Below, in pieces: positions 1,273 to 13,130 of a DNA stretch of 64,000 nucleotides. The stretch lies in sequence record LC739537.1. The stretch is one strand, 5' to 3'. The stretch's first letter is position 1. The number at the start of each line of letters is the position of its first letter. The notes beneath the pieces are model-generated. The model was not told the origin of the DNA, did not search any database, and saw only the letters and a program-made list of their open reading frames with translations. The translations under genes were made by a program, and so were the position numbers. This DNA is from Escherichia phage phiWec188.

Positions 1273-1929
1273 ATGACTATTAAACATATCTCTTTTGATG
1301 TATGGAACACACTGATCACAGCAAACCCAAATTACGCGGATATGCGAGCTTGGACTATCGCAAAATACGGAGATATTTCGGAAGTAGAAGCAAGAGCAGC
1401 TTACAAGAAGATCAAAAAGGAACTGGATAATGCGGCACTTCAGGGAACAGCCGAGTGTGCAGCATATGCCTGGGAAAGACTTGGTTACGAACTTGGGATA
1501 ACACCTTTGAAGTCTGCAAAGCTTCGTTTCGAGTGTGAACAGTGGTTCCTTAAGTTTCCACCACATGTGGCTGTGGATTTACCGATGCACTTGCTGTATC
1601 TTTCGGGGCGTTATGATTTGAGCATCAAGAGTAATACCAACTTCATATCAGGGGATATCCTGCGCCGGGCTTGTAAGTTTGATGGTTGGAATTGTTTTGA
1701 GTTCACCCATTTCTCGGATGAAGCTTTACTTTGTAAACCAGATCCGCGATTCTTTGCTCGCACGCTGACGTATTCTCCCATCCCTTTGTTAGGGCACGAA
1801 GTATTGCACGTAGGCGATAGTGAAGAATATGATGGAAAATGTGTTGACTTAGGATTTAACTTCTGTCATATTAAGAACCCTAACGACTTGTTAGATAAAC
1901 TTGCTAAAGGAGAACTTGTTAATGCGTAA
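1273..1929 (+). CDS. HAD-superfamily-like hydrolase (putative)
   Basis: N-terminal FDVWNTL (degenerate HAD motif I) and C-terminal GDSEEYD (motif IV-like); translationally coupled to neighbours. Confidence 0.45.
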   Translation: MTIKHISFDVWNTLITANPNYADMRAWTIAKYGDISEVEARAAYKKIKKELDNAALQGTAECAAYAWERLGYELGITPLKSAKLRFECEQWFLKFPPHVAVDLPMHLLYLSGRYDLSIKSNTNFISGDILRRACKFDGWNCFEFTHFSDEALLCKPDPRFFARTLTYSPIPLLGHEVLHVGDSEEYDGKCVDLGFNFCHIKNPNDLLDKLAKGELVNA

Positions 1930-2749
1930 TCAAACTCAAATCTTTGCTCACAAATTTGATAGTCTGGAAACTGCTCGTTTTGATATTCGTGACTATTCCA
2001 AACTGAAGTTTGGCAGCAACCAGGCGGCACGCCGTATGGGGCAAACATTGGCAGTCTCTTTCTATGACTTGGTAGTCAAGAATATGCCGGAAGAAGAGTT
2101 TGTGGTGATTCCTTCACCTTACAACCATGTGCATAACGCAGCAACCATGATGACCAACCAGTTCATCAATTTCTTGAACCTGTTGCTGCTGAATCACAAA
2201 GGTAGTCGTGCAGTAGAGTTGGATACGATTCACCGTAAGGTAAGCTACATTAACGATTATGGTTTCCTGGACAAAGCAAGCCGTAAGAAACTGATTGATG
2301 GGGACACATTCTATTGCAACAAAGATTTTTGGGGCAACAAGAAGCTGATCTTCATTGATGATGTGAACATCACGGGGACTCATGAAGATAAACTGATTGA
2401 GATCCTGGATGAAAATAAAGTTACGAACGATGTTTACTTCCTGTACTTTGCCAAGTATACTGGTAATCAAGCAGACACAGAAGCTAAACTGAACTTCAAT
2501 TATATTAACACGACAGATGCTTTCGTTAATATGATCAACACCGAACAAGATGCACAGTGTTTGGTTCGTCCTATCAAGTATCTGATGGGGCAAGCACCGG
2601 AAGAGTTTAAAATCATTCTCTCCCGTCTGCCACACCGTTATGTAGAAGCACTGTTCTTTGGGTGTCTTGGGGAAGGTTATGACAAGATCGAGAAGTATTC
2701 TGAAAACTTCGTCTTCCTGAACCGTTACTTTAACCAACATATCCTGTAA
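1922..2749 (+). CDS. phosphoribosyltransferase (PRTase) domain protein
   Basis: PRPP-binding signature KLIFIDDVNITGTHEDKL; start moved to ATG 1922 preceded by AAGGAGAA RBS. Confidence 0.5.
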   Translation: MRNQTQIFAHKFDSLETARFDIRDYSKLKFGSNQAARRMGQTLAVSFYDLVVKNMPEEEFVVIPSPYNHVHNAATMMTNQFINFLNLLLLNHKGSRAVELDTIHRKVSYINDYGFLDKASRKKLIDGDTFYCNKDFWGNKKLIFIDDVNITGTHEDKLIEILDENKVTNDVYFLYFAKYTGNQADTEAKLNFNYINTTDAFVNMINTEQDAQCLVRPIKYLMGQAPEEFKIILSRLPHRYVEALFFGCLGEGYDKIEKYSENFVFLNRYFNQHIL

Positions 2750-2758
2750 GGAGGGAAA

Positions 2759-3232
2759 ATGTTGAAGGTTGTTACTGGTAATCTGATCGATGCAGCTAAG
2801 AGCGGGGAAGTGAACGTTATAGCCCACTGTTGTAACTGCATGTGTAATATGGGTAAAGGGATTGCTCCACAGATTAAAAAAGCATTTCCTTATGCATATG
2901 CAGCCGACTTGGACACAGCAGCAGGTGATCAAAGTAAACTGGGTTCTTTTAGTTTAGGGGTGCCAGAGAATTCCTCTGATCCTTTGGTGTATAACCTGTA
3001 CGGACAGTATCGTTACGGGTACAACGCTAAAGGTCGTCAGTTGGACTACGATGCTCTTTATGACGCACTGATAGCTATGGCTAATGATTTGCTCCTCCAG
3101 GCAAAAGGGCTTAAAATTGGTCTGCCTATGATCGGAGCAGGTTTTGCGGGAGGTAATTGGGCTATCATCGAAGTGATGATTGAAGAAACTTTAGTAAAAA
3201 CAGGTCACGATGTGACTATTTATAAACTTTAA
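2759..3232 (+). CDS. macro domain protein (ADP-ribose binding/processing)
   Basis: VNVIAHCCNCMCNMGKGIAPQI and IGLPMIGAGFAGG match the two conserved macro-domain glycine-rich loops; AAGGAGGG RBS. Confidence 0.65.
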   Translation: MLKVVTGNLIDAAKSGEVNVIAHCCNCMCNMGKGIAPQIKKAFPYAYAADLDTAAGDQSKLGSFSLGVPENSSDPLVYNLYGQYRYGYNAKGRQLDYDALYDALIAMANDLLLQAKGLKIGLPMIGAGFAGGNWAIIEVMIEETLVKTGHDVTIYKL

Positions 3233-3245
3233 GAGGAGAAATAAT

Positions 3246-3467
3246 ATGGGTGTTGTTGCAGGTGTTCTGGCAGTAGTTATCGTGTTTGTTCTGGCTTTCC
3301 TGATCAGTATGATTCCAGCATGGCTTCTGCTGCTGGCTTATAACTACGTTGTTGAAATGATGGGTCACACAGATATCACTGTTCCTATCACCTTCTGGAC
3401 TGTGGTGTGTGTGGCATTTATCATGGCTGTACTACGTGGGATCTTTTCCTCAAGTTCTTCAAAATAA
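3246..3467 (+). CDS. small hydrophobic membrane protein
   Basis: 73 aa, two predicted transmembrane stretches; AGAGGAGAA RBS. Confidence 0.5.
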   Translation: MGVVAGVLAVVIVFVLAFLISMIPAWLLLLAYNYVVEMMGHTDITVPITFWTVVCVAFIMAVLRGIFSSSSSK

Positions 3468-3470
3468 GTG

Positions 3471-3498
3471 TTGACAAAGTTTTAGAATAGAGTAAGAT
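3471..3498 (+). promoter_or_regulatory. sigma70-like promoter candidate (TTGACA -35, TAAGAT -10, 16-nt spacer) upstream of terC
   Basis: consensus -35 hexamer; -10 is 4/6; located in the only sizeable intergenic gap in this region. Confidence 0.4.
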
Positions 3499-3548
3499 GT
3501 ATCACATGAGGCGGGGAGTGGTTCCCCGCAAAGAGAAAGGAGAAAATA

Positions 3549-4523
3549 ATGCAACTTGGTTTCCCCATTATTGATGTAGTGGTGTTGGTAGGTATTCTTG
3601 TTCTGTCCATCGGTATTGACTTTTTCGGGCATCGTGAGAACAAGGAAATCTCTTTCAAATCTGCTGTGGCTTGGTCAATCTTCTGGATTGGTGTGTCTTT
3701 AGCCTACTATGGTTTTGTATACTTCCAGCACGGCGCAGATTTTGCAAACTTGTTCTTGAGCGGGTATGTGTTAGAGAAGTCGCTCTCGGTAGATAACTTG
3801 GTAGTGTTTGTAGCAGTGTTCTCCAGTTTCGGGATTAAGAGCACACACTTACAACACAAAATTCTACTCTGGGGTATTGCAGGTGCGATTGTCTTCCGAG
3901 GTGTGTTTGTAGCAGCAGGGACTTATCTGCTAAGTATTGGATGGTATGTTAATATTTTCTTCGGTATTGTGATTCTTTTTTGTGCGGCGAAGATGTTGTT
4001 TAAACAAGACGATGACGCAGCAGTTGATTACTCTAAACATTGGGCTACCCGCGTCGTTCGTAAACTGTTCCCAGTATCGGATCAGATGGATGGTGAGAAG
4101 TTCTTCACGATTAAGAATGGTGTTCGTGTAGCAACTCCGGCTCTGGTTTGTGTGTTCGTGATGGAAATGGTAGATGTGATCTTTGCAGTAGACTCGGTTC
4201 CGGCTGTAATTGCAGTGACACAAGAACCACTGCTTGTATTCTCTTCGATGCTCTGTGCAATCTTAGGCTTACGTGCTCTGTTCTTTGTTCTTAGTGTGGC
4301 CCTGAAGTATCTGGTTCACCTGGAGAAAGCAGTTATCGCAGTCCTGGTGTTTGTTGGTGTGAAACTGATGTATCACCCGTTTGCAGAAACGCTGCACGCA
4401 AAAGTGAGCTTCCTGCCAGCGCATATTGACCCGACGATCAGCATGTATATCGTGCTTGGTACTCTGGCCCTGGGCGTGATTGCAAGTTTCATCTTCCCTG
4501 AAAAAGAAGAAGCTACCGCTTAA
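3549..4523 (+). CDS. terC: TerC-family integral membrane protein
   Basis: multi-pass hydrophobic protein with the TerC signature EKSLSVDNLVVFVAVF; RBS AAAGGAGAA. Confidence 0.8.
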   Translation: MQLGFPIIDVVVLVGILVLSIGIDFFGHRENKEISFKSAVAWSIFWIGVSLAYYGFVYFQHGADFANLFLSGYVLEKSLSVDNLVVFVAVFSSFGIKSTHLQHKILLWGIAGAIVFRGVFVAAGTYLLSIGWYVNIFFGIVILFCAAKMLFKQDDDAAVDYSKHWATRVVRKLFPVSDQMDGEKFFTIKNGVRVATPALVCVFVMEMVDVIFAVDSVPAVIAVTQEPLLVFSSMLCAILGLRALFFVLSVALKYLVHLEKAVIAVLVFVGVKLMYHPFAETLHAKVSFLPAHIDPTISMYIVLGTLALGVIASFIFPEKEEATA

Positions 4524-4531
4524 TACCAATG

Positions 4532-4556
4532 AACCTCCTTCGGGAGGTTTCTTACT
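4532..4556 (+). terminator. intrinsic terminator (AACCTCC-TTCG-GGAGGTT + T-rich tail)
   Basis: perfect 7-bp stem with UUCG tetraloop immediately after terC stop. Confidence 0.6.
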
Positions 4557-4571
4557 AATATAGGAGGAATT

Positions 4572-4922
4572 ATGTCTGTATATTTTGATGATGTTCAGGA
4601 ATATGTTTGGTGTCTTTCTGGCACAATCCAAGAGGTAGAAGCTGCGATTCAAGAGGTTTTTCCTTATGCTTATGTAGAAGTTAAACAGACACCTCCTATG
4701 GATCTTCCACCTAATGTTGAAGCTTGTTGTGGTTCAGGTGAGGGTACAGTCACCCCAGTTCTGCGTTACGAACTACAAGCAGCAAGTGCAAATGTCGATG
4801 ATATTATTACAGAAATTAAGGTGTATGGTTTCTGGACCTCTCCTTACGCTAAATGGGATAACTCTGACACTTGGGATTTATTCTTCTGGGATAATGAGAC
4901 AGATGATGAGGTATTTCTGTAA
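4572..4922 (+). CDS. hypothetical protein
   Basis: TAGGAGG RBS; acidic, Trp-rich C-terminus; no recognised motif. Confidence 0.5.
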   Translation: MSVYFDDVQEYVWCLSGTIQEVEAAIQEVFPYAYVEVKQTPPMDLPPNVEACCGSGEGTVTPVLRYELQAASANVDDIITEIKVYGFWTSPYAKWDNSDTWDLFFWDNETDDEVFL

Positions 4923-5164
4923 TGAAAGTTGTTTGGGTTGTGTTTGAAAATATTTGTTTTGCAATAGGTTTGTTCGTCATACTTTTTGTGTTGACAAACG
5001 TGATCAATGGTAGTAAAGTATCCCTATACAAAGACGGGGAGCAGATTTACTGCTTCTCTGGAGATTTCAAACACACCTGTGTTAATATGCAGAAAGAAGA
5101 AACTCCACACCAGAAGTCAAGAGAAGATTTTGATTGGTGGTCACTACTTAATAACTTAAGATGA
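4922..5164 (+). CDS. small membrane protein
   Basis: start overlaps upstream stop; N-terminal transmembrane segment. Confidence 0.45.
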   Translation: MKVVWVVFENICFAIGLFVILFVLTNVINGSKVSLYKDGEQIYCFSGDFKHTCVNMQKEETPHQKSREDFDWWSLLNNLR

Positions 5165-5173
5165 GGAGAAAAT

Positions 5174-6040
5174 ATGAAAAATATTCAGCCATTACCTGTA
5201 GTTGGGGATTTGTATTTCTTATCTGGTACGGGTTATTCCCCAGAAGCATTAGAAGTTAACAAGAACGTCTTCCGAGTGAAAGAAATAAGAGAAGAATGTA
5301 ATGAAATTGTTTTCGAAGGTATTACTAACGGAGTTCTTCAGTATGCAGAGATGCGTAGCTGCTTCCAGCAACCTTTCCGCCCGTTGGCAGACGAGTATAA
5401 GATTGCGGTAAATATTGACGATCTTAAAAAATCTCCTTTGTTTGAAGGGTTCTCTGCTTTTATGGCAGATACTTATGTGGATGTAAAGAGATCTAACCTT
5501 TTCGCAGGGGATAATTTCCCTCACTTTGTAGCAGAGAAAAGTCATGGTTTTTCCGATTATGTGGATGCTGTAAACTATGATGTTTCTGAATTGACAGAAG
5601 AGCAGGATTATCTCCTGTTATCTCCTAAAGATTTCATGAGCGTAATGTATGCCGTAGCTGAACAGAAAAAGAAGAAAGAAGAACCTGTAGCCAAAGTTAA
5701 AAAGGTTAAAGGTAAACGTGCCAAAGGTATTCCAGAACGTAAGCGCACCGTAAATAAGGCGACAGTTTTCTTTACCAGCGGTGAGCAATATACGATCAAA
5801 GGTTTTAAAGAAGTGGGTTACACTGCTGGCGGAAACCTTATGTTCTTCACAGTTGCAGAAGAAGGAGAAACTTTTATCCGTTTTTCCAATATGTGGGAAA
5901 TGTCTGTAGAAGATATTAAAAGTGTTGTTGTTTTAGGTGTACATAAGAGTTTCATTATTAACCAAATCTCTGATTTCAGTGCACACTTGACAGCACCAGA
6001 TTTCGAAACTACCACAACAAGCTTTAACTTCAAGGTGTAA
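5174..6040 (+). CDS. hypothetical protein with lysine-rich central linker
   Basis: GAGGAGAA RBS; KKKKEEPVAKVKKVKGKRAKG basic stretch. Confidence 0.5.
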   Translation: MKNIQPLPVVGDLYFLSGTGYSPEALEVNKNVFRVKEIREECNEIVFEGITNGVLQYAEMRSCFQQPFRPLADEYKIAVNIDDLKKSPLFEGFSAFMADTYVDVKRSNLFAGDNFPHFVAEKSHGFSDYVDAVNYDVSELTEEQDYLLLSPKDFMSVMYAVAEQKKKKEEPVAKVKKVKGKRAKGIPERKRTVNKATVFFTSGEQYTIKGFKEVGYTAGGNLMFFTVAEEGETFIRFSNMWEMSVEDIKSVVVLGVHKSFIINQISDFSAHLTAPDFETTTTSFNFKV

Positions 6041-6043
6041 TGC

Positions 6044-6634
6044 ATGAATACCGAGAGAGATTTAAAACTCTTGTGGTGGGAAGTGATGCAGGAGATCAAG
6101 GAGGATTTCCCTGTTTACTACAACATGCTACGTGAAGCTGGATATACGGCTTGCGTTAGGAACAAAGTGAATAACTCTTTCGGTTGGTGCAACTACCGAG
6201 AAAAGATTGTTGTTGTGAATTGGCACTTGCATAAAAACTCCACAAGGGATATGATAGTGGACACAATGAAGCATGAAATTGCTCATGCTATTGATGGTTG
6301 TATGGGTAAGTTCAGTCGTCATGGACCACACTGGCAAAAACTGGCAGCAGAGTTGGGAGCCAATCCTAAAGCTACTTCCAAAGAACCGTTCAATCATGAA
6401 TACAAATATGTTCTTGTTTTGGTAGACAGATTTGCCACAAGATGTGTTAGAGGGTATAATCGTAAACCTAACCGTATGACCCCAGGGAAACAACCACATA
6501 TTTGGTTGAAGAGTGATAAAGAGGGGACAGAAGGAAAAATATGGTTGTATAAATGGGAAGATTGGGTTAAAGTAGCTAAAGAATATGGTGTTTCACCTTA
6601 CACAAGAGAAATAGAAGAGGAGAATGAAGAATGA
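6044..6634 (+). CDS. SprT-like zinc metallopeptidase domain protein
   Basis: HEIAHAI (HExxH) preceded by hydrophobic beta-strand region typical of SprT/Wss1-like fold. Confidence 0.55.
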   Translation: MNTERDLKLLWWEVMQEIKEDFPVYYNMLREAGYTACVRNKVNNSFGWCNYREKIVVVNWHLHKNSTRDMIVDTMKHEIAHAIDGCMGKFSRHGPHWQKLAAELGANPKATSKEPFNHEYKYVLVLVDRFATRCVRGYNRKPNRMTPGKQPHIWLKSDKEGTEGKIWLYKWEDWVKVAKEYGVSPYTREIEEENEE

Positions 6635-7743
6635 CAAGTCCATTTTTGAAAGCGGCAACTGGTGGTCAAAAGAAATCTGAAACGAGTGTACTGACTGCTA
6701 CTACAGACGCAAGCAAGTCCGTGTTCGCTCCGAGTGTCCTGGATGCAAGTCCGGTGTATGCTCCAGCAGCGCCAAAAGCTGTGCCTACCCTGCCAACAAT
6801 GTCTCGTAAAGAGATTGAAGAAGTAGGTGCAGAAGCAGGTTTAACTCTCCGTTCTCTGAATGCTGAAGTGCTGAAGCACCAACGTAGCAATCAAGGTGAC
6901 GAAATGAGTCAACGCCTTACAGCTTTGATTAAACAAGCCAAACAGCTTGATCCTGCCTCCATTAAGCAGAGTAAAGGTGTAGGTAAACTCATCAAGAAAC
7001 TGATGGGGATGAAAGAAGATCTCTTCGGTGAGTTCGATAACGTGAACAACCGTATCGAAGAACTCGTTAAGAATCTTCAAATGGATATCCGTAAAGAAGA
7101 AGATTCTCTGGTGTACCTGGATAAGCTGCACCAGGCGATCGGACAGTACGCCGCAAGCCTGAATCGTGATATGGAATTACTCACAGCAGCTTATGAGCAA
7201 GAACTGGCTACTTTTGAAGCCACACCAGAAGATGACGTAGAAGCCCGTCAACGCGTCCGTGACACGCTTGATCTCTTGGAGATACGTATTGCTGACTTGA
7301 AGGCATTACGCTTGCTGTGCGTGCAAATGGGACCGCGTGTATTGGGTATGCAGAAAGTATCTGCCAGCCTCATGCGTTCTGCTCGTAATATTGTGAACAA
7401 TGTGATTCCTGCTTACTCGGCAAACTTCTCAATGTATATTGAAAGTCTGCGCCAGAAGAAAGCAGCAGAAACACAGAACAACGTTCTGGACGAGTTCAAC
7501 CTGGCAATCAAACTGGGTAGCGATCTTGCCACACAGAATCAGATCGAAGCAGCAGCACTGGCTAACCGCCAAGTACTGGATATTGAAACCCTGCGTCACG
7601 ATCAGGAAAACTTGGTTAAGATGTTGGAAGAAACTAACCGCATCAATACGGAAGCCCGTGCTGCCCGTGTTGATTACATCAATGAAGTTCAATCTCTCGA
7701 AGATGGGATGGTTGACGCTGTTAAGAAGGGGCTTGGTAAATGA
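6631..7743 (+). CDS. alpha-helical protein, possible TelA-like (toxic anion resistance family)
   Basis: 370 aa, predicted helical/coiled-coil, size and context (adjacent to TerC/TerD genes) fit TelA; no diagnostic motif verified. Confidence 0.35.
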   Translation: MTSPFLKAATGGQKKSETSVLTATTDASKSVFAPSVLDASPVYAPAAPKAVPTLPTMSRKEIEEVGAEAGLTLRSLNAEVLKHQRSNQGDEMSQRLTALIKQAKQLDPASIKQSKGVGKLIKKLMGMKEDLFGEFDNVNNRIEELVKNLQMDIRKEEDSLVYLDKLHQAIGQYAASLNRDMELLTAAYEQELATFEATPEDDVEARQRVRDTLDLLEIRIADLKALRLLCVQMGPRVLGMQKVSASLMRSARNIVNNVIPAYSANFSMYIESLRQKKAAETQNNVLDEFNLAIKLGSDLATQNQIEAAALANRQVLDIETLRHDQENLVKMLEETNRINTEARAARVDYINEVQSLEDGMVDAVKKGLGK

Positions 7744-7934
7744 GAATCCGTGTCTATGTAGTTGAAGATTATTTTGGTGTACGCTATGACGAGGAACGTC
7801 GATTCGCACCTATGTGCAGCGTATATTCTCCAAGCGTCTTAGCAAGTTTACGGAAAGATTATTCTTATGAAGCTTGTAATAGTTTTGGTTTTGAGATTCT
7901 TTCAGACGTAGAATTTAATGAGGAGGAAGAATGA
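7740..7934 (+). CDS. hypothetical small protein
   Basis: overlapping start/stop coupling. Confidence 0.35.
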   Translation: MRIRVYVVEDYFGVRYDEERRFAPMCSVYSPSVLASLRKDYSYEACNSFGFEILSDVEFNEEEE

Positions 7935-8104
7935 AAACATTGCGTGTGAACATCGAAACTGCCTGGGCTGGATGTACCGAGGTTGTGGATATCGAAATTG
8001 AAGACGATATGTCTCAAGAAGATATCGAAGATCTTGCAAAAGAAACATTTCAGGATTATTGTAATTACGGGTTCCATATTTTAGGGGAGGAAGAAGATGA
8101 TTAA
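7931..8104 (+). CDS. hypothetical small acidic protein (57 aa, below ORF-track cutoff)
   Basis: GAGGAGGAAGA RBS then ATG 7931; translated by hand. Confidence 0.35.
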   Translation: MKTLRVNIETAWAGCTEVVDIEIEDDMSQEDIEDLAKETFQDYCNYGFHILGEEEDD

Positions 8105-8495
8105 CCACACAAACGTACATTTGAAATTAACGGTAACAGATCCGACTCTTTTCATCAATCTCACAAGCGGTGAAATTTACGAAGTTATCACAGACGAGGA
8201 TGGTTCTTGCTTCCTTAAAGGTTATTATCTCTGTGAATCTGATGAGTTGGTATCTATTATCACCTTGGGAGAATACGAAGAACCAGGTTTCCGTGTAGAG
8301 GTTGTTAAGAATCCTGATATTATCCAATTAACTCGACAAGAACTGATCACCATCATGGAAGATGCTTTTATCGATGGGTGGAAGACTCAAAACTATGATT
8401 GGAGTGGTCCAGAAGACTTCCTGCGTCTTCATAAAGAATATGACGAGTGTAGTGAGACTACTCTTGCCATTGATGATATTAAGGCAGGTCTGTAA
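8097..8495 (+). CDS. hypothetical protein
   Basis: coupled ORF. Confidence 0.45.
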   Translation: MINHTNVHLKLTVTDPTLFINLTSGEIYEVITDEDGSCFLKGYYLCESDELVSIITLGEYEEPGFRVEVVKNPDIIQLTRQELITIMEDAFIDGWKTQNYDWSGPEDFLRLHKEYDECSETTLAIDDIKAGL

Positions 8496-9064
8496 TGGGT
8501 TGCTTTAGTTTTCTGTGTAAGGAGTCGGGCAAAGCTGCCCTCTCCACATCTTTCGATGGTTCTCCTTGCTATCTTTTCCTGTTGAAAGATGGGAAGGTTA
8601 TTGAAGAGATGTATGGCAACTATGATAGTTATGGACGTGTCTTCAGCAGTAAGCAGGATGCTCACGGGAACAGAGAAAGCTTTAAATGGACTATGCCTTG
8701 GAGCGACGTTTGTGATCTTATGTTCTCTGTAAACCGTGGAGACGGTATTGCTATGGTTTTAGCAGAACACTTTACAGGAGAAGTCCCTACAAAGCGATCC
8801 GAGGACGATCCTAATCAAGGTTGGGGAGATGGAGAAGAAGAGGAAGAAGAGGATTATTTCTACAGTACCGAAAATAATATTTTCAAACGTGTTGACAATC
8901 CTTATCATAAAGTGCATAATGTCCTCATTGAAACAGAAGACGACAAAATGGGAATTGAAGAAGATGATCCTCTTGTAACACTGCCTACAAGCGAGTTACA
9001 AAAAATCATCAAAGAAGCTTACGATTTGGGCTTCAAAACTGGTAAAGGAGGAGGGAATGTTTGA
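8495..9064 (+). CDS. hypothetical protein with poly-Glu linker
   Basis: coupled ORF; GDGEEEEEED acidic tract. Confidence 0.45.
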   Translation: MGCFSFLCKESGKAALSTSFDGSPCYLFLLKDGKVIEEMYGNYDSYGRVFSSKQDAHGNRESFKWTMPWSDVCDLMFSVNRGDGIAMVLAEHFTGEVPTKRSEDDPNQGWGDGEEEEEEDYFYSTENNIFKRVDNPYHKVHNVLIETEDDKMGIEEDDPLVTLPTSELQKIIKEAYDLGFKTGKGGGNV

Positions 9065-9329
9065 TTTTAAAATAAAAGATTCAAAACCCCAAGATGTAGC
9101 ACTTCGTTTCGAAGAGTTGGGGATTGGTGAAACTTTCATGTATTATTCAGCATATGAAGAAAATGGTTTGGATACGTTTGCAAACTTAGTATTTATTAAA
9201 AGCGGCGGCGCGACTGCTGTTTGTTTGAATAGTTCATCAAGAGGGAGTGTCCATACCGTATCCCCAGATGTACCGATGGTTGCAGTTCGTTTAGTAGTTA
9301 CCGATATCACACTTACAGAGGAGAAATAA
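9057..9329 (+). CDS. hypothetical protein, paralog A (pairs with 10351-10632)
   Basis: shares KDSKP...SAYEENGLD motif with the 10351-10632 product; each precedes a TerD-type gene. Confidence 0.5.
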   Translation: MFDFKIKDSKPQDVALRFEELGIGETFMYYSAYEENGLDTFANLVFIKSGGATAVCLNSSSRGSVHTVSPDVPMVAVRLVVTDITLTEEK

Positions 9330-9330
9330 T

Positions 9331-10131
9331 ATGTCCAATAAAATTAGCCTGAAGAAACGCCAAGACACCCTGACCATTTCACTGAAGAAAAAGAAAATCG
9401 TCAACGAAGATCAAAAGATCGTTCTGCGTGTTGCAAGCGCACTGGATATCTCCGGTAGTATGTCCAGCTTGTATCGTAACGGCACCGTCAGTGATTTCGT
9501 AGGTAAGCTGCTGCCCTTCGGTATGATCTTTGACGATAATGCACAGATCGATATGTGGGCTTTCAACAATAGCTCTCGTGAAATCACTCCGGCAACTGCT
9601 GATGTGTATGATGATTACGTTGGTAAATGCATTAATGGTCGTGTAACAGTTCAGGGTGGTACAAGCTACGCCCCTGTTATGCAAGATATCTACGATTCTT
9701 ACTTCGGTAGCACTACCAAGTATGAAACTGTAGAAACTCAAGTAACGAAAGAAATCCCTAAGAAAGGTTTCTTCAACCGTCTGTTGGGTAAAACTGAAAC
9801 TGTAGAAGCTGTTGTAGAAAAAACTGTAGCCGTTGCTGTGCCTGGTGTAGACGTTACTCCGGCAGTTGTGTTCTTCCAGACAGATGGTGAGAACGATGAT
9901 CCGAGCCGTGTACTCTCCGTACTGGAAAAGAACAAGGGTAAACCTATCTACTGGTTCATGGTGGGTGTTGGTAGTGCTCGTTTCTCTTTCCTGAAAGATT
10001 TGGCTGAAGCTTACGACAACGTAGCATTCATTGGTCTGAACGATCTTTCCTTGACAGACGAGCAGCTTTACGATAAACTCTTGTCTGAAGAGTTCGGTGA
10101 GTGGGTCGAAAAGGTTGGTGCTAAGAAATGA
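9331..10131 (+). CDS. vWA domain protein with TerD-like N-terminal leader (TerY/TerF-like)
   Basis: N-terminal ISLKK repeats as in TerD; MIDAS-type DISGSM, GGTSYAP, FFQTDGENDD, MVGVG motifs of a von Willebrand A domain. Confidence 0.65.
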   Translation: MSNKISLKKRQDTLTISLKKKKIVNEDQKIVLRVASALDISGSMSSLYRNGTVSDFVGKLLPFGMIFDDNAQIDMWAFNNSSREITPATADVYDDYVGKCINGRVTVQGGTSYAPVMQDIYDSYFGSTTKYETVETQVTKEIPKKGFFNRLLGKTETVEAVVEKTVAVAVPGVDVTPAVVFFQTDGENDDPSRVLSVLEKNKGKPIYWFMVGVGSARFSFLKDLAEAYDNVAFIGLNDLSLTDEQLYDKLLSEEFGEWVEKVGAKK

Positions 10132-10370
10132 TCGATACGCTGATCTCTCAAACGGTGTTACAAGTGATGCGCGAGAGAGAAGCTTTCATCATGAAGGGTC
10201 TTAAAGATTACTTTGGGACTCTTTCTTTGGAAGAACTCAAGCTACGCGTTGAGATCCATCAGTATCCTTTTTATGAAGAATGGATTGACAAAGCAAATAA
10301 AGCTGTTATAATGCGTATCAACAAACCAGAAATCACGACAGGAGGACAAGATGTTAAATTTCGCTATTAA
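10128..10370 (+). CDS. hypothetical small protein
   Basis: coupled ORF. Confidence 0.4.
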   Translation: MIDTLISQTVLQVMREREAFIMKGLKDYFGTLSLEELKLRVEIHQYPFYEEWIDKANKAVIMRINKPEITTGGQDVKFRY

Positions 10371-10632
10371 GAAAGATAGCAAACCAGAGATTCAGACTTG
10401 TCGCATTGCAAATCTTACACATCGGGATTTGTTTGTTCTGAAAAGCGCCTACGATGAAGACGGTCTTGACCCAGAAGCAGTCATCGTTTATATGGTATTG
10501 CGGCGAGACGAAGACACCAAGCACCCATACAATGCGGTAGAAATGAATTACAATGCAATGTTGTGTTCAATACACCATACGGCAGAGTTGGTGCAGGTAG
10601 AGTTAACAGTTAACGAAATTAAACTTAAATAA
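10351..10632 (+). CDS. hypothetical protein, paralog B (pairs with 9057-9329)
   Basis: see paralog A. Confidence 0.5.
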   Translation: MLNFAIKKDSKPEIQTCRIANLTHRDLFVLKSAYDEDGLDPEAVIVYMVLRRDEDTKHPYNAVEMNYNAMLCSIHHTAELVQVELTVNEIKLK

Positions 10633-10647
10633 TAGAGGAGACATATA

Positions 10648-11250
10648 ATGAGCGATAAAATTTCCCTGAAAAAAGGTTCCACTGACAAGATTTCCCTGAA
10701 GAAAGTTGCTCCGGCACTGAAAGAACTGCGTCTGGAGTTCTCCTGGAAATCAAACTCTAAACTGGATTTGGATGTAAGCGCACTTGTATGCCGACACAAC
10801 GCTTCTGGCAACCCTGAAATGCTGTCTGCACGTCATCTGGTTTGTTATGCTAACAAGTTTGATCCAGAACGTTCTGTATTCGCAGGTGATGATGTTCGTG
10901 ATGGTACTGGTCAAATGGAACAGATTGATGTAACCTTAGCTAAGATCTCCGATAAAGCCGAAGAGATTGCTTTTGTCCTGACTATTGATGATGAAACGGG
11001 CCAGAAACGTCTGGGCCATGCTACTGAAGGTATGCTGAAGATTTTTGATGCCGAGCGTAACGTTGAGATCCTGGACTTCGACTTCCTGGCTCCTGAAGTA
11101 GCTGGTAACACGATCTGCCACGTAGCTTCCTTGGTTCGTGAAGACGGTGAATGGAAACTGAAAGCTTACGGTGTTGGTAAAGCAGGTATGGATATCTGTG
11201 ATGTGGTTATGGCCTTCGGTGGTCAGAAAGAATGGTATGATTGCCCGTAA
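10648..11250 (+). CDS. terD: TerD-family protein
   Basis: ISLKKG..ISLKKVAP, DLDVSAL, GDDVRDGTG, FVLTIDD and GEWKLKAYG motifs line up with E. coli TerD. Confidence 0.85.
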   Translation: MSDKISLKKGSTDKISLKKVAPALKELRLEFSWKSNSKLDLDVSALVCRHNASGNPEMLSARHLVCYANKFDPERSVFAGDDVRDGTGQMEQIDVTLAKISDKAEEIAFVLTIDDETGQKRLGHATEGMLKIFDAERNVEILDFDFLAPEVAGNTICHVASLVREDGEWKLKAYGVGKAGMDICDVVMAFGGQKEWYDCP

Positions 11251-11347: not shown

Positions 11348-11869
11348 TTGCTGATAAAAAACTTTGTAACAGTTGCGTTACTATCCTTAACTGCTTTTAC
11401 ATTTACACCTGTCACGGCAACCGCCGAAGCTGCAAACGTAAAGACTGCTAAAGTAGTTCACAAATGTGCAAAGCAAGATACTAAAGAAAATCTCTTAGCT
11501 TGTGCAATTTACGCTGAAAGTCGTAATCAGGGTAAACGTGGAATGTATGCTGTAGGTAACGTAGTATTGAACAGGAAAGGTGATGATTACTTCCCTGACA
11601 ATATTAAAGATATTCTCTTCCAACGGGGACAATTCTCTTACAGGAAGAAGTTTAACGTTACTGAAGCAGAGCGATGGAAAGAAGCTAAAGCTATCGCAAA
11701 ACGACTTATATACCTGGATACAAACTTCCCTACACTTAGAGAAGCCCAGGACATGACAAAAGGTGCGACATTTTTTAAGAAAGTAAAAACCCGTGCACAC
11801 TGGACAAAAGATATGGTCTTAGTGTATCGTTATAAAGAACATCAGTTCTACTCACCGACAAGGAGCTAA
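11348..11869 (+). CDS. SleB-type cell-wall hydrolase with N-terminal signal peptide (endolysin candidate)
   Basis: TTG start 7 nt after AAGGAGG; LIKNFVTVALLSLTAFTFTPVTATAEA signal-like leader; AIYAESRNQ...GMYAVGNVVLNR hydrolase motifs. Confidence 0.6.
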   Translation: MLIKNFVTVALLSLTAFTFTPVTATAEAANVKTAKVVHKCAKQDTKENLLACAIYAESRNQGKRGMYAVGNVVLNRKGDDYFPDNIKDILFQRGQFSYRKKFNVTEAERWKEAKAIAKRLIYLDTNFPTLREAQDMTKGATFFKKVKTRAHWTKDMVLVYRYKEHQFYSPTRS

Positions 11870-11870
11870 T

Positions 11871-12155
11871 ATGCGAGAAGATAATACTGTTGTTGTTGCG
11901 AGCTATCTCGTTATCGGTTTAACCGAAGAAGATGTGTACTACATTCGTAAAGGTTTGGAAGCTTACGCTACCCTCTTCATGGAAGACGAAAGCGATGTTG
12001 ATAAATATTCCGTGGAGTTGCTCAACGACAGTATTTATCCTTGCATAGCTCTTAAAGTAGATGCTGTTCTGTGGGAGCGTTTTGCAAGAAGTCACGATGC
12101 TGTTGAATCTTCAATGGTTATGGCACAAAACAACATTTTAGGAGTGATTCACTAA
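11871..12155 (+). CDS. hypothetical protein
   Basis: coupled ORF. Confidence 0.45.
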   Translation: MREDNTVVVASYLVIGLTEEDVYYIRKGLEAYATLFMEDESDVDKYSVELLNDSIYPCIALKVDAVLWERFARSHDAVESSMVMAQNNILGVIH

Positions 12156-12385
12156 TGGCAGATATCATCGAAGTAAACTTCCGTACTCGGAAGAAAGTAG
12201 AGAAATACACGATACTGAAAAGTGTTTGCGTTGTTTGTTTCAACAGTGTAATCTACGATTCAAGAAAGGGCGAAGACGGTAACGAACCGTATATCGAACT
12301 CTCCAAGAGCAACGGTAGTTGCATTTGTAAAGCTTGTGCTGTTCAGATTAAGGGGGTTGTTGATGAAAACGAATGGGATAAATAA
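12155..12385 (+). CDS. small zinc-ribbon protein
   Basis: CVVC...CICKAC cysteine pairs. Confidence 0.45.
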   Translation: MADIIEVNFRTRKKVEKYTILKSVCVVCFNSVIYDSRKGEDGNEPYIELSKSNGSCICKACAVQIKGVVDENEWDK

Positions 12386-12557
12386 TACAGGGGAACTTTC
12401 TCTTGAGAACGTAACAAACGACAAACTGATTAAAATGCGAGATGTAGCTTTGGATCATCTTCAAGACTCCTTCAAGGAATATATGGAAGCACGGGATCGT
12501 GTGCTTGAGATTCGTCAAGCAATGGTTAAACGCGGAATGGTAGTGGATTCTAAGTAA
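12336..12557 (+). CDS. hypothetical small protein
   Basis: ORF; start uncertain. Confidence 0.35.
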   Translation: MLFRLRGLLMKTNGINNTGELSLENVTNDKLIKMRDVALDHLQDSFKEYMEARDRVLEIRQAMVKRGMVVDSK

Positions 12558-12566
12558 GGGGTTAGT

Positions 12567-13130
12567 ATGATTTATTATATTACCCCTTATCTGACTGGAG
12601 ATATCGGCAAAGCAATTAACGATGCTATTGCCGTTCTTCATGAAGATAGTTGGGTGTGTTTACGTGATACCGACACCATGTTCTTACTGCCAGACCAACC
12701 TTCTATGTTGGAAGATTTGGTAGCAACCAACCCACCGTTCGATGTAATAGGTGCATCCTGTAACCGTTTAGGCAGTAGTTATCAACTCCTCGGCGGAAAG
12801 ATTAATGATGATCCTGACATTCTGAACCATATTTCTCATGCCAAAGTTGCTCGTGATTACTATGGCGATGAAATTGAAGAAGTCCCGCAAGGCACTCCCT
12901 TGGCAGGTTTCTTCCTGTTGTTCAGGAAATCATTATGGAAGGAGATCCCTTTTGAAGAACGTAGCATCCAGTTCGATATAATCTTCTCAAACACTTTACA
13001 TGAACGAGGAAAAAGGTTAGGATTGATGCGTGGGATGTATCTCTTCCACATTTACCGTTTAGGTCAAAAAGATCCTCAACGGGCAATATCACACCTCATG
13101 CACTGTCATGATCACAGGAAAACTATTTAG
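12567..13130 (+). CDS. glycosyltransferase-like protein (putative)
   Basis: LRDTDTMF DxD-like motif in Rossmann-like N-terminal half. Confidence 0.4.
   Translation: MIYYITPYLTGDIGKAINDAIAVLHEDSWVCLRDTDTMFLLPDQPSMLEDLVATNPPFDVIGASCNRLGSSYQLLGGKINDDPDILNHISHAKVARDYYGDEIEEVPQGTPLAGFFLLFRKSLWKEIPFEERSIQFDIIFSNTLHERGKRLGLMRGMYLFHIYRLGQKDPQRAISHLMHCHDHRKTI

Follow-up and report, generated by a model that had tools for sequence, protein, structure and literature searches.

The locus raises the question of whether an SprT-like zinc metalloprotease gene and the TelA-family gene whose start it overlaps act together as a pair, or are separate genes that share one phage operon. The stretch of DNA analysed (hereafter the window) comprises 64,000 nucleotides and is 100% identical to the reverse complement of LC739539.1, the record of Escherichia phage phiWec190; the phage is placed in the Stephanstirmvirinae, genus Phapecoctavirus. 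All features described here lie on the plus strand of the window. The SprT-like open reading frame (ORF) occupies positions 6044 to 6634 (ATG start, 196 aa) and the TelA frame positions 6631 to 7743 (ATG start, 370 aa), both corresponding to coding sequences deposited for phiWec190 (BDU13775.1 and BDU13774.1 in LC739539.1) and annotated merely as hypothetical proteins. In the junction sequence GAAGAATGACAAG, read directly, the ATG of TelA (6631 to 6633) and the TGA of the SprT-like frame (6632 to 6634) form a 4-nt ATGA overlap at 6631 to 6634, and a GAGGAG Shine-Dalgarno sequence is found 8 nt 5' of the TelA ATG, within the end of the SprT-like coding sequence. The coordinates, lengths and overlap put forward in the first-pass annotation are borne out, as is the HEIAHAI motif that it had noticed in the 196-aa protein (residues 77 to 83, nt 6272 to 6292). 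In comparison with phage vB_EcoM-P3322, dN/dS values of 0.06 for the SprT-like gene and 0.03 for TelA point to strong purifying selection on both, and the two are therefore regarded as real, functional genes.

The assignment of the 196-aa product to the SprT-like family was made with Pfam PF10263, which matches residues 34 to 107 at 37.5 bits against a gathering score of 25.6. No Pfam match was obtained to Peptidase_M78, WLM or M48, and Peptidase_M78 (ImmA/IrrE), WLM/Wss1 and M48 supplied neither a profile match nor the closest fold; DUF6782, the sole other metallopeptidase match, stayed below threshold at 18.7 bits (gathering score 27). Among the PHROGs, phrog_6445, for which no function is given, matches the protein at 3.7e-59. 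Homologues were gathered by a word-indexed search (4), profile iteration (28) and an exhaustive phmmer search (1169 representatives), and a precomputed PF10263 match is carried by all 28 of the profile-iteration homologues except one fragment. The bacterial SprT equivalog NF003421 of NCBIfam was reached at only 20.8 bits, and because this is far under its cut-off of 175 bits the phage protein is not considered an orthologue of bacterial SprT. Some relatives (PV191315, OM362897) are already annotated as “SprT-like family protein” and “TelA-like protein”.

The structural evidence points in the same direction. A single-protein sequence search against the PDB gave nothing meaningful and a family profile was needed, with which human SPRTN ranked first among the PDB sequences (E 1.3e-4) in an alignment extending through the SPRTN ZBD. 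The AlphaFold2 model of the protein is confident (pLDDT 93.3, pTM 0.82), and human SPRTN was its top match in two independent structure searches, ranking first in Foldseek against the PDB (6mdx_A, E 1.1e-4, 178 aligned columns); IrrE/PprI and selecase also appeared among the Foldseek matches, but the fold of the model is closer to the solved SprT domain than to other zincins. With PF10263 above its gathering score, SPRTN as the best structural match and SPRTN reached again by the family sequence profile, the SprT-like context proposed from the letters of the sequence is upheld. The catalytic motif H77-E78-x-x-H81 ... H93 (HEIAH-x11-HGPHW, 6272 to 6322) can be followed through the family and into SPRTN: G47, H77, E78, A80, H81, H93 and W97 are invariant in 27 aligned homologues, and H77, E78, H81 and H93 align, by HMM-guided mapping, with human SPRTN H111, E112, H115 and H130. 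Neither a signal peptide nor a TM segment was predicted.

What sets the protein apart is its C-terminal half. Residues 113 to 185 (6380 to 6598) are predicted, from the profile alignment through the SPRTN ZBD, to form a basic, beta-rich subdomain (pI 9.6, followed by an acidic tail) that would derive from the SprT zinc-binding subdomain by loss of the zinc. In the alignment, the distant homologues P0021-P0028 carry CxxC...CxxC or HxxC pairs in this half, whereas the clade of the window (P0001-P0018) has no such pairs, yet keeps a GYNRKP strand and two tryptophans. The Cys/His ligands of SPRTN (CNGPC...HQKTC) correspond to L126, about R129, D158 and T162, so that the subdomain is alignable but devoid of Cys/His ligands for a C-terminal zinc ribbon, a single Cys being present in the region. 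Since such a ribbon is not universal in PF10263, the protein is taken to be a variant that is still a member of the family. R140 and K141 map to SPRTN K184 and R185, W154 to W197, and G137-Y138 to G181-Y182, whereas SPRTN Y179 aligns with the non-aromatic C134. In SPRTN, R185 and, to a lesser degree, Y179 and W197 are needed for DNA-dependent activity (Reinking et al. 2020, PMC7534798).

On the strength of these alignments, the 196-aa protein is an SprT/Spartan-type zincin, predicted to be catalytically intact, and its second subdomain appears to be a version of the SprT DNA-binding subdomain that has lost its zinc. In the mechanism proposed, the N-terminal zincin subdomain would supply the HExxH motif and the third His, while the basic C-terminal subdomain would descend from the SprT zinc-binding subdomain, its zinc ligands having been lost but an Arg/Lys pair and an aromatic residue, aligned with SPRTN residues for DNA-dependent activation, having been retained. 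The protein would bind to DNA of the incoming or replicating phage genome, probably where it is single-stranded or forms a junction, and this binding would switch on the proteolysis of proteins stuck or bound there, the candidate substrates being trapped topoisomerases, crosslinked proteins and host DNA-bound factors. DNA-activated proteolysis is in our judgement the most likely mechanism, and action on DNA-protein crosslinks is suggested by the modelled fold together with the conserved residues; the homologue from which DNA dependence and substrate would both be carried over is eukaryotic and only about 18% identical. With the structural zinc lost, the C-terminal subdomain may have taken on another role. 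No experimental study of a phage TelA, or of an SprT-like protease from a bacterium or phage, came up in the literature search, and to our knowledge a substrate has yet to be demonstrated for any SprT-like protease of prokaryotes or viruses.

The second gene belongs to the TelA family. PF05816 (TelA, toxic anion resistance protein) matches the 370-aa product at 120.5 bits (gathering score 30) over profile positions 13 to 326 of 332, and phrog_5890, labelled “tellurite resistance”, matches it at 6.6e-133; a disordered N-terminus (residues 1 to 58) precedes an all-helical TelA domain (59 to 360). The TelA-like assignment of the first-pass annotation is confirmed by the Pfam score, and the helical nature that it described fits the all-alpha AlphaFold2 model. 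No TM segment was predicted and no sequence relatives were found in the PDB. Foldseek gave no match at E <= 0.001, only generic helical bundles (BAR, ClyA/AhlC-type and designed bundles), and since the model is of modest confidence (pLDDT 65.6) and its matches are generic, no mechanism is drawn from it. In the HMM searches proposed at the outset (SprT-like, Peptidase_M78, TelA), SprT-like and TelA passed and Peptidase_M78 was absent; the protease fell into no unrelated HExxH family and the TelA assignment held.

TelA belongs to a phage-borne Ter module, which resembles a tellurite-resistance cluster and is made up of PRTase, HAD, Macro, TerC/Alx, TelA, vWA-TerF and TerD. HAD-like hydrolase (weak), PRTase_3 (ComF-like) and Macro-domain genes lie at 1273 to 3232 (PRTase_3, PF15610, 4.9e-41; Macro, 24.8 bits against a gathering score of 22; HAD, 22.6 bits, under its gathering score) and are a putative metabolite-making arm of the module. 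A TerC/Alx membrane protein is encoded at 3549 to 4523 (Pfam TerC 1.7e-39; TIGR03718 Alx 320 bits against 246), a vWA-TerF-like protein at 9331 to 10131 (PF10138, 2.5e-37) and TerD at 10648 to 11250 (PF02342, 2.1e-29), after which come a SleB-like hydrolase and glycosyltransferases. No TerB, TerZ/A/E paralogue set or ATP-grasp gene was detected, and the PADLOC defence models (e.g. TerY-P) gave no match for the SprT-like protein, TelA, TerC, vWA-TerF or the product of the 288-aa ORF at 5174 to 6040. The latter (ORF-5174; phrog_27550/27504, no Pfam match) has homologues preceding TelA in L003, L006, L015, L016 and L017, a homologue lies immediately 5' of TelA in the Escherichia coli phage alia, and its family is conserved in this phage group as the gene next upstream of TelA. 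On the explanation favoured here, TelA is the soluble helical component of the module, in which the ORF-5174 family is also counted.

Iyer et al. (2021, PMC7824862) described phage Ter systems whose components match this operon; the roles proposed there are competition with superinfecting phages and xenobiotic resistance, TelA and the TerF vWA protein being proposed to form sub-membrane structures, and published comparative genomics reads the module as a membrane-associated system serving stress responses, superinfection exclusion or resistance to xenobiotics. A similar Ter sub-cluster has been reported in Klebsiella phage phiKp34 (bioRxiv 10.1101/2021.03.02.433402).

As to when the operon is expressed, an intergenic sigma-70-like match (TTGACA-16-TAAGAT, 3471 to 3498), which is a consensus match only, lies 5' of terC, and the phAPEC8 record has a putative host-dependent promoter annotated at the same position, just 5' of terC. 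Promoter-like matches in the region occur at chance level (25 found, 25.1 expected), and timing is therefore not settled by the sequence, early expression being plausible. No riboswitch was found 5' of the phage TerC/Alx gene, the Rfam matches being tRNAs only.

The distribution of the two genes among related phages bears on the question posed. In Phapecoctavirus (the window and L002) the two genes overlap by ATGA, with TelA at 90-100% identity and the SprT-like protein of L002 at 92%. In Klebsiella phages phi1_175008 and FKP3, TelA is retained at 75% and the SprT-like protein at 49%, the two genes being separated by a 9-nt gap, while in contig L016 (TelA 50%, SprT-like 45%) the order is SprT-like, a 194-aa ORF and then TelA. 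TelA is found with no SprT-like gene in the E. coli Justusliebigvirus alia (78%) and in contigs L015 and L017 (48%), and among the Escherichia-named records of the phage collection 138 have a TelA match as against 67 with an SprT-like match. Conversely, full-length SprT-like orthologues at 39-41% identity occur in phage contigs without Ter genes (L012-L014), Vibrio phage SRILMA has an SprT-like gene with no Ter gene nearby, and the SprT-like homologues of T4-like phages come after topoisomerase II genes. An SprT-family HMM found nothing near TelA in CcrBL9, 121Q, fHe-Yen9-04, phiPsa374, alia, L015 or L017. The first four infect Caulobacter, E. coli, Yersinia and Pseudomonas, in that order. A wider recurrence of TelA-protease linkage in other phages was considered and rejected, the “metallopeptidase” of 121Q and its Yersinia phage counterpart proving to be Rv2179c-like exoribonucleases.

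The SprT-like gene thus comes and goes independently of TelA, and is therefore an ordinary accessory gene and not half of a new two-gene system. The best explanation, held with moderate confidence, is that two independent accessory genes, an SprT/Spartan-type protease and a Ter-module TelA, share a compact and probably early phage operon. Where both are present, the protease gene stays in the same small Ter-cluster region in several lineages, and a loose functional association is possible.

A tentative alternative, to which we give distinctly less credence, is that the SprT-like protein serves host takeover or anti-defence by cutting one or a few specific host proteins, for example a restriction or immunity factor, independently of DNA. 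It would be analogous to what has been proposed for the SprT-like and ArdC-like zincins of jumbo phages and plasmids, and Iyer et al. (2021, PMC7824862) argue that phage SprT-like peptidases, being patchily distributed and variable in copy number, have host proteins as their targets. The distribution is likewise patchy within the one subfamily considered here, the protease evolves faster than TelA (45-49% against 69-75% identity in phages with both), and one SprT-like orthologue shares its block with a homologue of the anti-Gabija protein Gad2. However, the conserved DNA-contact positions of the SPRTN ZBD and the basic subdomain are hard to explain if the enzyme acts independently of DNA, and no PADLOC model is related to it; the proposal moreover overlaps with that of two independent accessory genes should the enzyme act on a defence protein bound to DNA.

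A bolder reading, which we consider rather improbable, is that Stephanstirmvirinae-like phages deploy zinc-ribbon-less, SPRTN-type DNA-dependent proteases in conflict with the host, or have wired such a protease into the Ter module. In the former case the enzyme could free phage DNA of host proteins held on it covalently or tightly, for example poisoned topoisomerases, adducts of the SRAP/YedK type or defence proteins that clamp DNA; in the latter, a DNA or nucleotide signal could trigger proteolysis.

Slightly less credible still is a true functional pair, in which the protease would process, activate or degrade TelA or another Ter protein and the overlap would fix their ratio. The 4-nt overlap is real and the TelA Shine-Dalgarno sequence does lie inside the SprT-like coding sequence; adjacency is maintained in Phapecoctavirus and the Klebsiella Stephanstirmvirinae, the SprT-like gene of L016 lies no more than about 600 nt from TelA, and the long disordered N-terminus of TelA could be a cleavage substrate. 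Nevertheless, 14 of the 29 junctions of the plus-strand operon overlap, four of them as ATGA, and the one between SprT-like and TelA is for that reason not distinctive. The overlap, which the earlier reading took as translational coupling, accordingly fails as the mark of a pair; it reflects tight gene packing and may allow some coupling. The pairing itself fares no better: the overlap becomes a 9-nt gap in the Klebsiella phages and a whole gene in L016, TelA lacks the protease in alia, L015, L017 and all the distant TelA-carrying phages examined, and the protease occurs away from Ter neighbours, without TelA, in L012-L014, SRILMA and KP15. The sole “metallopeptidase” adjoining a distant TelA, that of 121Q, is the mis-annotated Rv2179c-like exoribonuclease.

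Lastly, placement of the 196-aa protein in another HExxH family (ImmA/IrrE Peptidase_M78, M48/HtpX-like, WLM/Wss1 or DUF6782), as the “M48 family peptidase” label on the relative in Shigella phage SF1-1, the sub-threshold DUF6782 match and the IrrE/PprI and selecase matches might suggest, is largely refuted and very improbable, since SprT-like alone passes its Pfam cut-off, PF10263 recurs across the homologue set, and the HExxH-x11-HGxxW spacing with a trailing ribbon-derived subdomain fits the SprT/SPRTN layout.

The description that fits the locus best is a phage Ter cluster of known type with an SprT-like protease inserted in it, the latter being an ordinary accessory gene whose presence varies. 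Ter sub-clusters in phages are already known, as are SprT-like and TelA-like labels on some relatives; the mildly new point is a phage clade whose sequences indicate a zinc-less version of the SprT DNA-binding subdomain. At the level of annotation, two “hypothetical proteins” of phiWec190 are upgraded to an SprT-like protease and TelA, and mis-annotations of relatives as “DNA helicase”, “M48 peptidase” and “metallopeptidase” are corrected. Should the protease prove to be DNA-activated, a confidently modelled enzyme of 196 aa with a single catalytic zinc would make a handy minimal model for SPRTN-type activation, and would also be a candidate counter-defence factor. Were the bolder reading of a protease used in conflict with the host true, no earlier protease of the DNA-protein-crosslink type would have been shown to act between virus and bacterium. 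There is also a negative lesson: where the genes of a phage operon are densely packed, a start codon that overlaps the preceding stop codon is no evidence that two genes function as a pair.

Among known systems, the SprT domain of human SPRTN (PDB 6MDX) shares only about 18% sequence identity with the phage protein, whose second subdomain, unlike that of SPRTN, has no Cys/His zinc ligands and does not conserve Y179; the basic region, SHP, PIP and UBZ tail of SPRTN are likewise missing, the phage protein ending in a short acidic tail. E. coli SprT/YggI (NF003421) is comparable as a small stand-alone protease of similar size in the same Pfam family; the CxxC...CxxC ribbon typical of bacterial SprT persists in distant members of the phage family but is missing from the clade of the window. 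ArdC (PDB 6SNA) differs in carrying an N-terminal ssDNA-binding domain, to which the phage protein has no counterpart. SprT-like peptidases of some jumbo phages have been suggested to target host proteins (PMC7824862). The phage of the window, at about 150 kb, is not a jumbo phage, and its protein is set beside the SprT-like and ArdC-like zincins of jumbo phages and conjugative plasmids as a comparable protease, not as a demonstrated orthologue. Ter stress-response clusters were reportedly treated by Anantharaman, Iyer and Aravind in 2012, and an SprT-like protease is not listed as a Ter component in the phage Ter literature examined. Although the module of the window differs from the terZABCDEF and telAB clusters in that TerB, the TerZ/A/E paralogue set and ATP-grasp were not detected, it resembles them in bringing together TerC, TelA, vWA-TerF and TerD, with PRTase and HAD, in one operon.

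The phage-borne Ter module occupies window 1273-11250 on the plus strand and is fairly complete, comprising a HAD-like hydrolase, a PRTase_3 (ComF-like) protein, a Macro domain protein, TerC/Alx, TelA, a vWA-TerF-like protein, and TerD; neither TerB nor ATP-grasp genes were detected within it. Only terC is annotated among the genes of this module in the phiWec190 record. The encoded TerC matches TIGR03718, the riboswitch-associated Alx subfamily, and an Rfam search of the 81 nt located 5' of terC/alx (window 3468-3548) did not find a riboswitch. The same interval contains a sigma-70-like promoter match at 3471-3498, in the position where a host-dependent promoter is annotated in the phAPEC8 record.

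As a partner of TelA, the ORF at window 5174-6040 (plus strand, 288 aa, function unknown, phrog_27550/27504) is a better candidate than the SprT-like gene. Members of this ORF family consistently and directly precede TelA in Stephanstirmvirinae-like phages, namely alia, phi1_175008, and the phage contigs L015, L016, and L017. The 288-aa product was without a match in a Pfam search. On the other side of TelA, a conserved block was observed 3' of the gene in the jumbo phages 121Q (L009 7052-9390) and fHe-Yen9-04 of Yersinia (L011 7339-9715), consisting of an Rv2179c-like 3'-5' exoribonuclease (labelled “metallopeptidase” in the 121Q record), an unknown protein of 364 aa, and the product that 121Q labels LemA.

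Record labels also diverge in Klebsiella phage FKP3, where the SprT-like, vWA-TerF, and TerD genes are named “DNA helicase”, “tail protein”, and “HNH endonuclease”, respectively. Its locus (L007 3724-5991) carries a 1000-bp tandem duplication containing a truncated, N-terminal SprT-like copy (L007 4413-4634). Elsewhere in the window, 10 tRNA genes are clustered on the minus strand at 60839-63288 (Rfam RF00005, 50-74 bits), and the GC skew changes sign at about 24 kb, being positive ahead of this point (about +0.1 to +0.18) and near or below zero beyond it, consistent with a switch of the dominant coding strand.

Concerning the SprT-like family itself, the phage contig L013 encodes a 39%-identical orthologue, and a homologue of Gad2 (anti-Gabija) and a Band_7 protein share its plus-strand block (8850-9956 and 11786-12585), which would fit an early or anti-defence accessory region. 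The family profile also matches the PBCV-1 minor capsid protein P4 (PDB 6ncl chain c2, E 0.0038) via a HELAH...SSHSDEWK motif, a sequence likeness hinting that this giant-virus structural protein may hold a remnant of a SprT-like zincin. Distant homologues of the SprT-like protein (27-35% identity) are encoded by T4-like Straboviridae, namely Klebsiella phage KP15 (KP15_4, L005 3869-4477) and RB43/Lw1/GAP161-like phages, and the genes for the large and medium subunits of DNA topoisomerase II lie directly 5' of these homologues in the T4-like Straboviridae. This adjacency may merely reflect the variable rIIA-topoisomerase region; it is nonetheless suggestive, because topoisomerase adducts in eukaryotes are removed by SPRTN/Wss1-type proteases.
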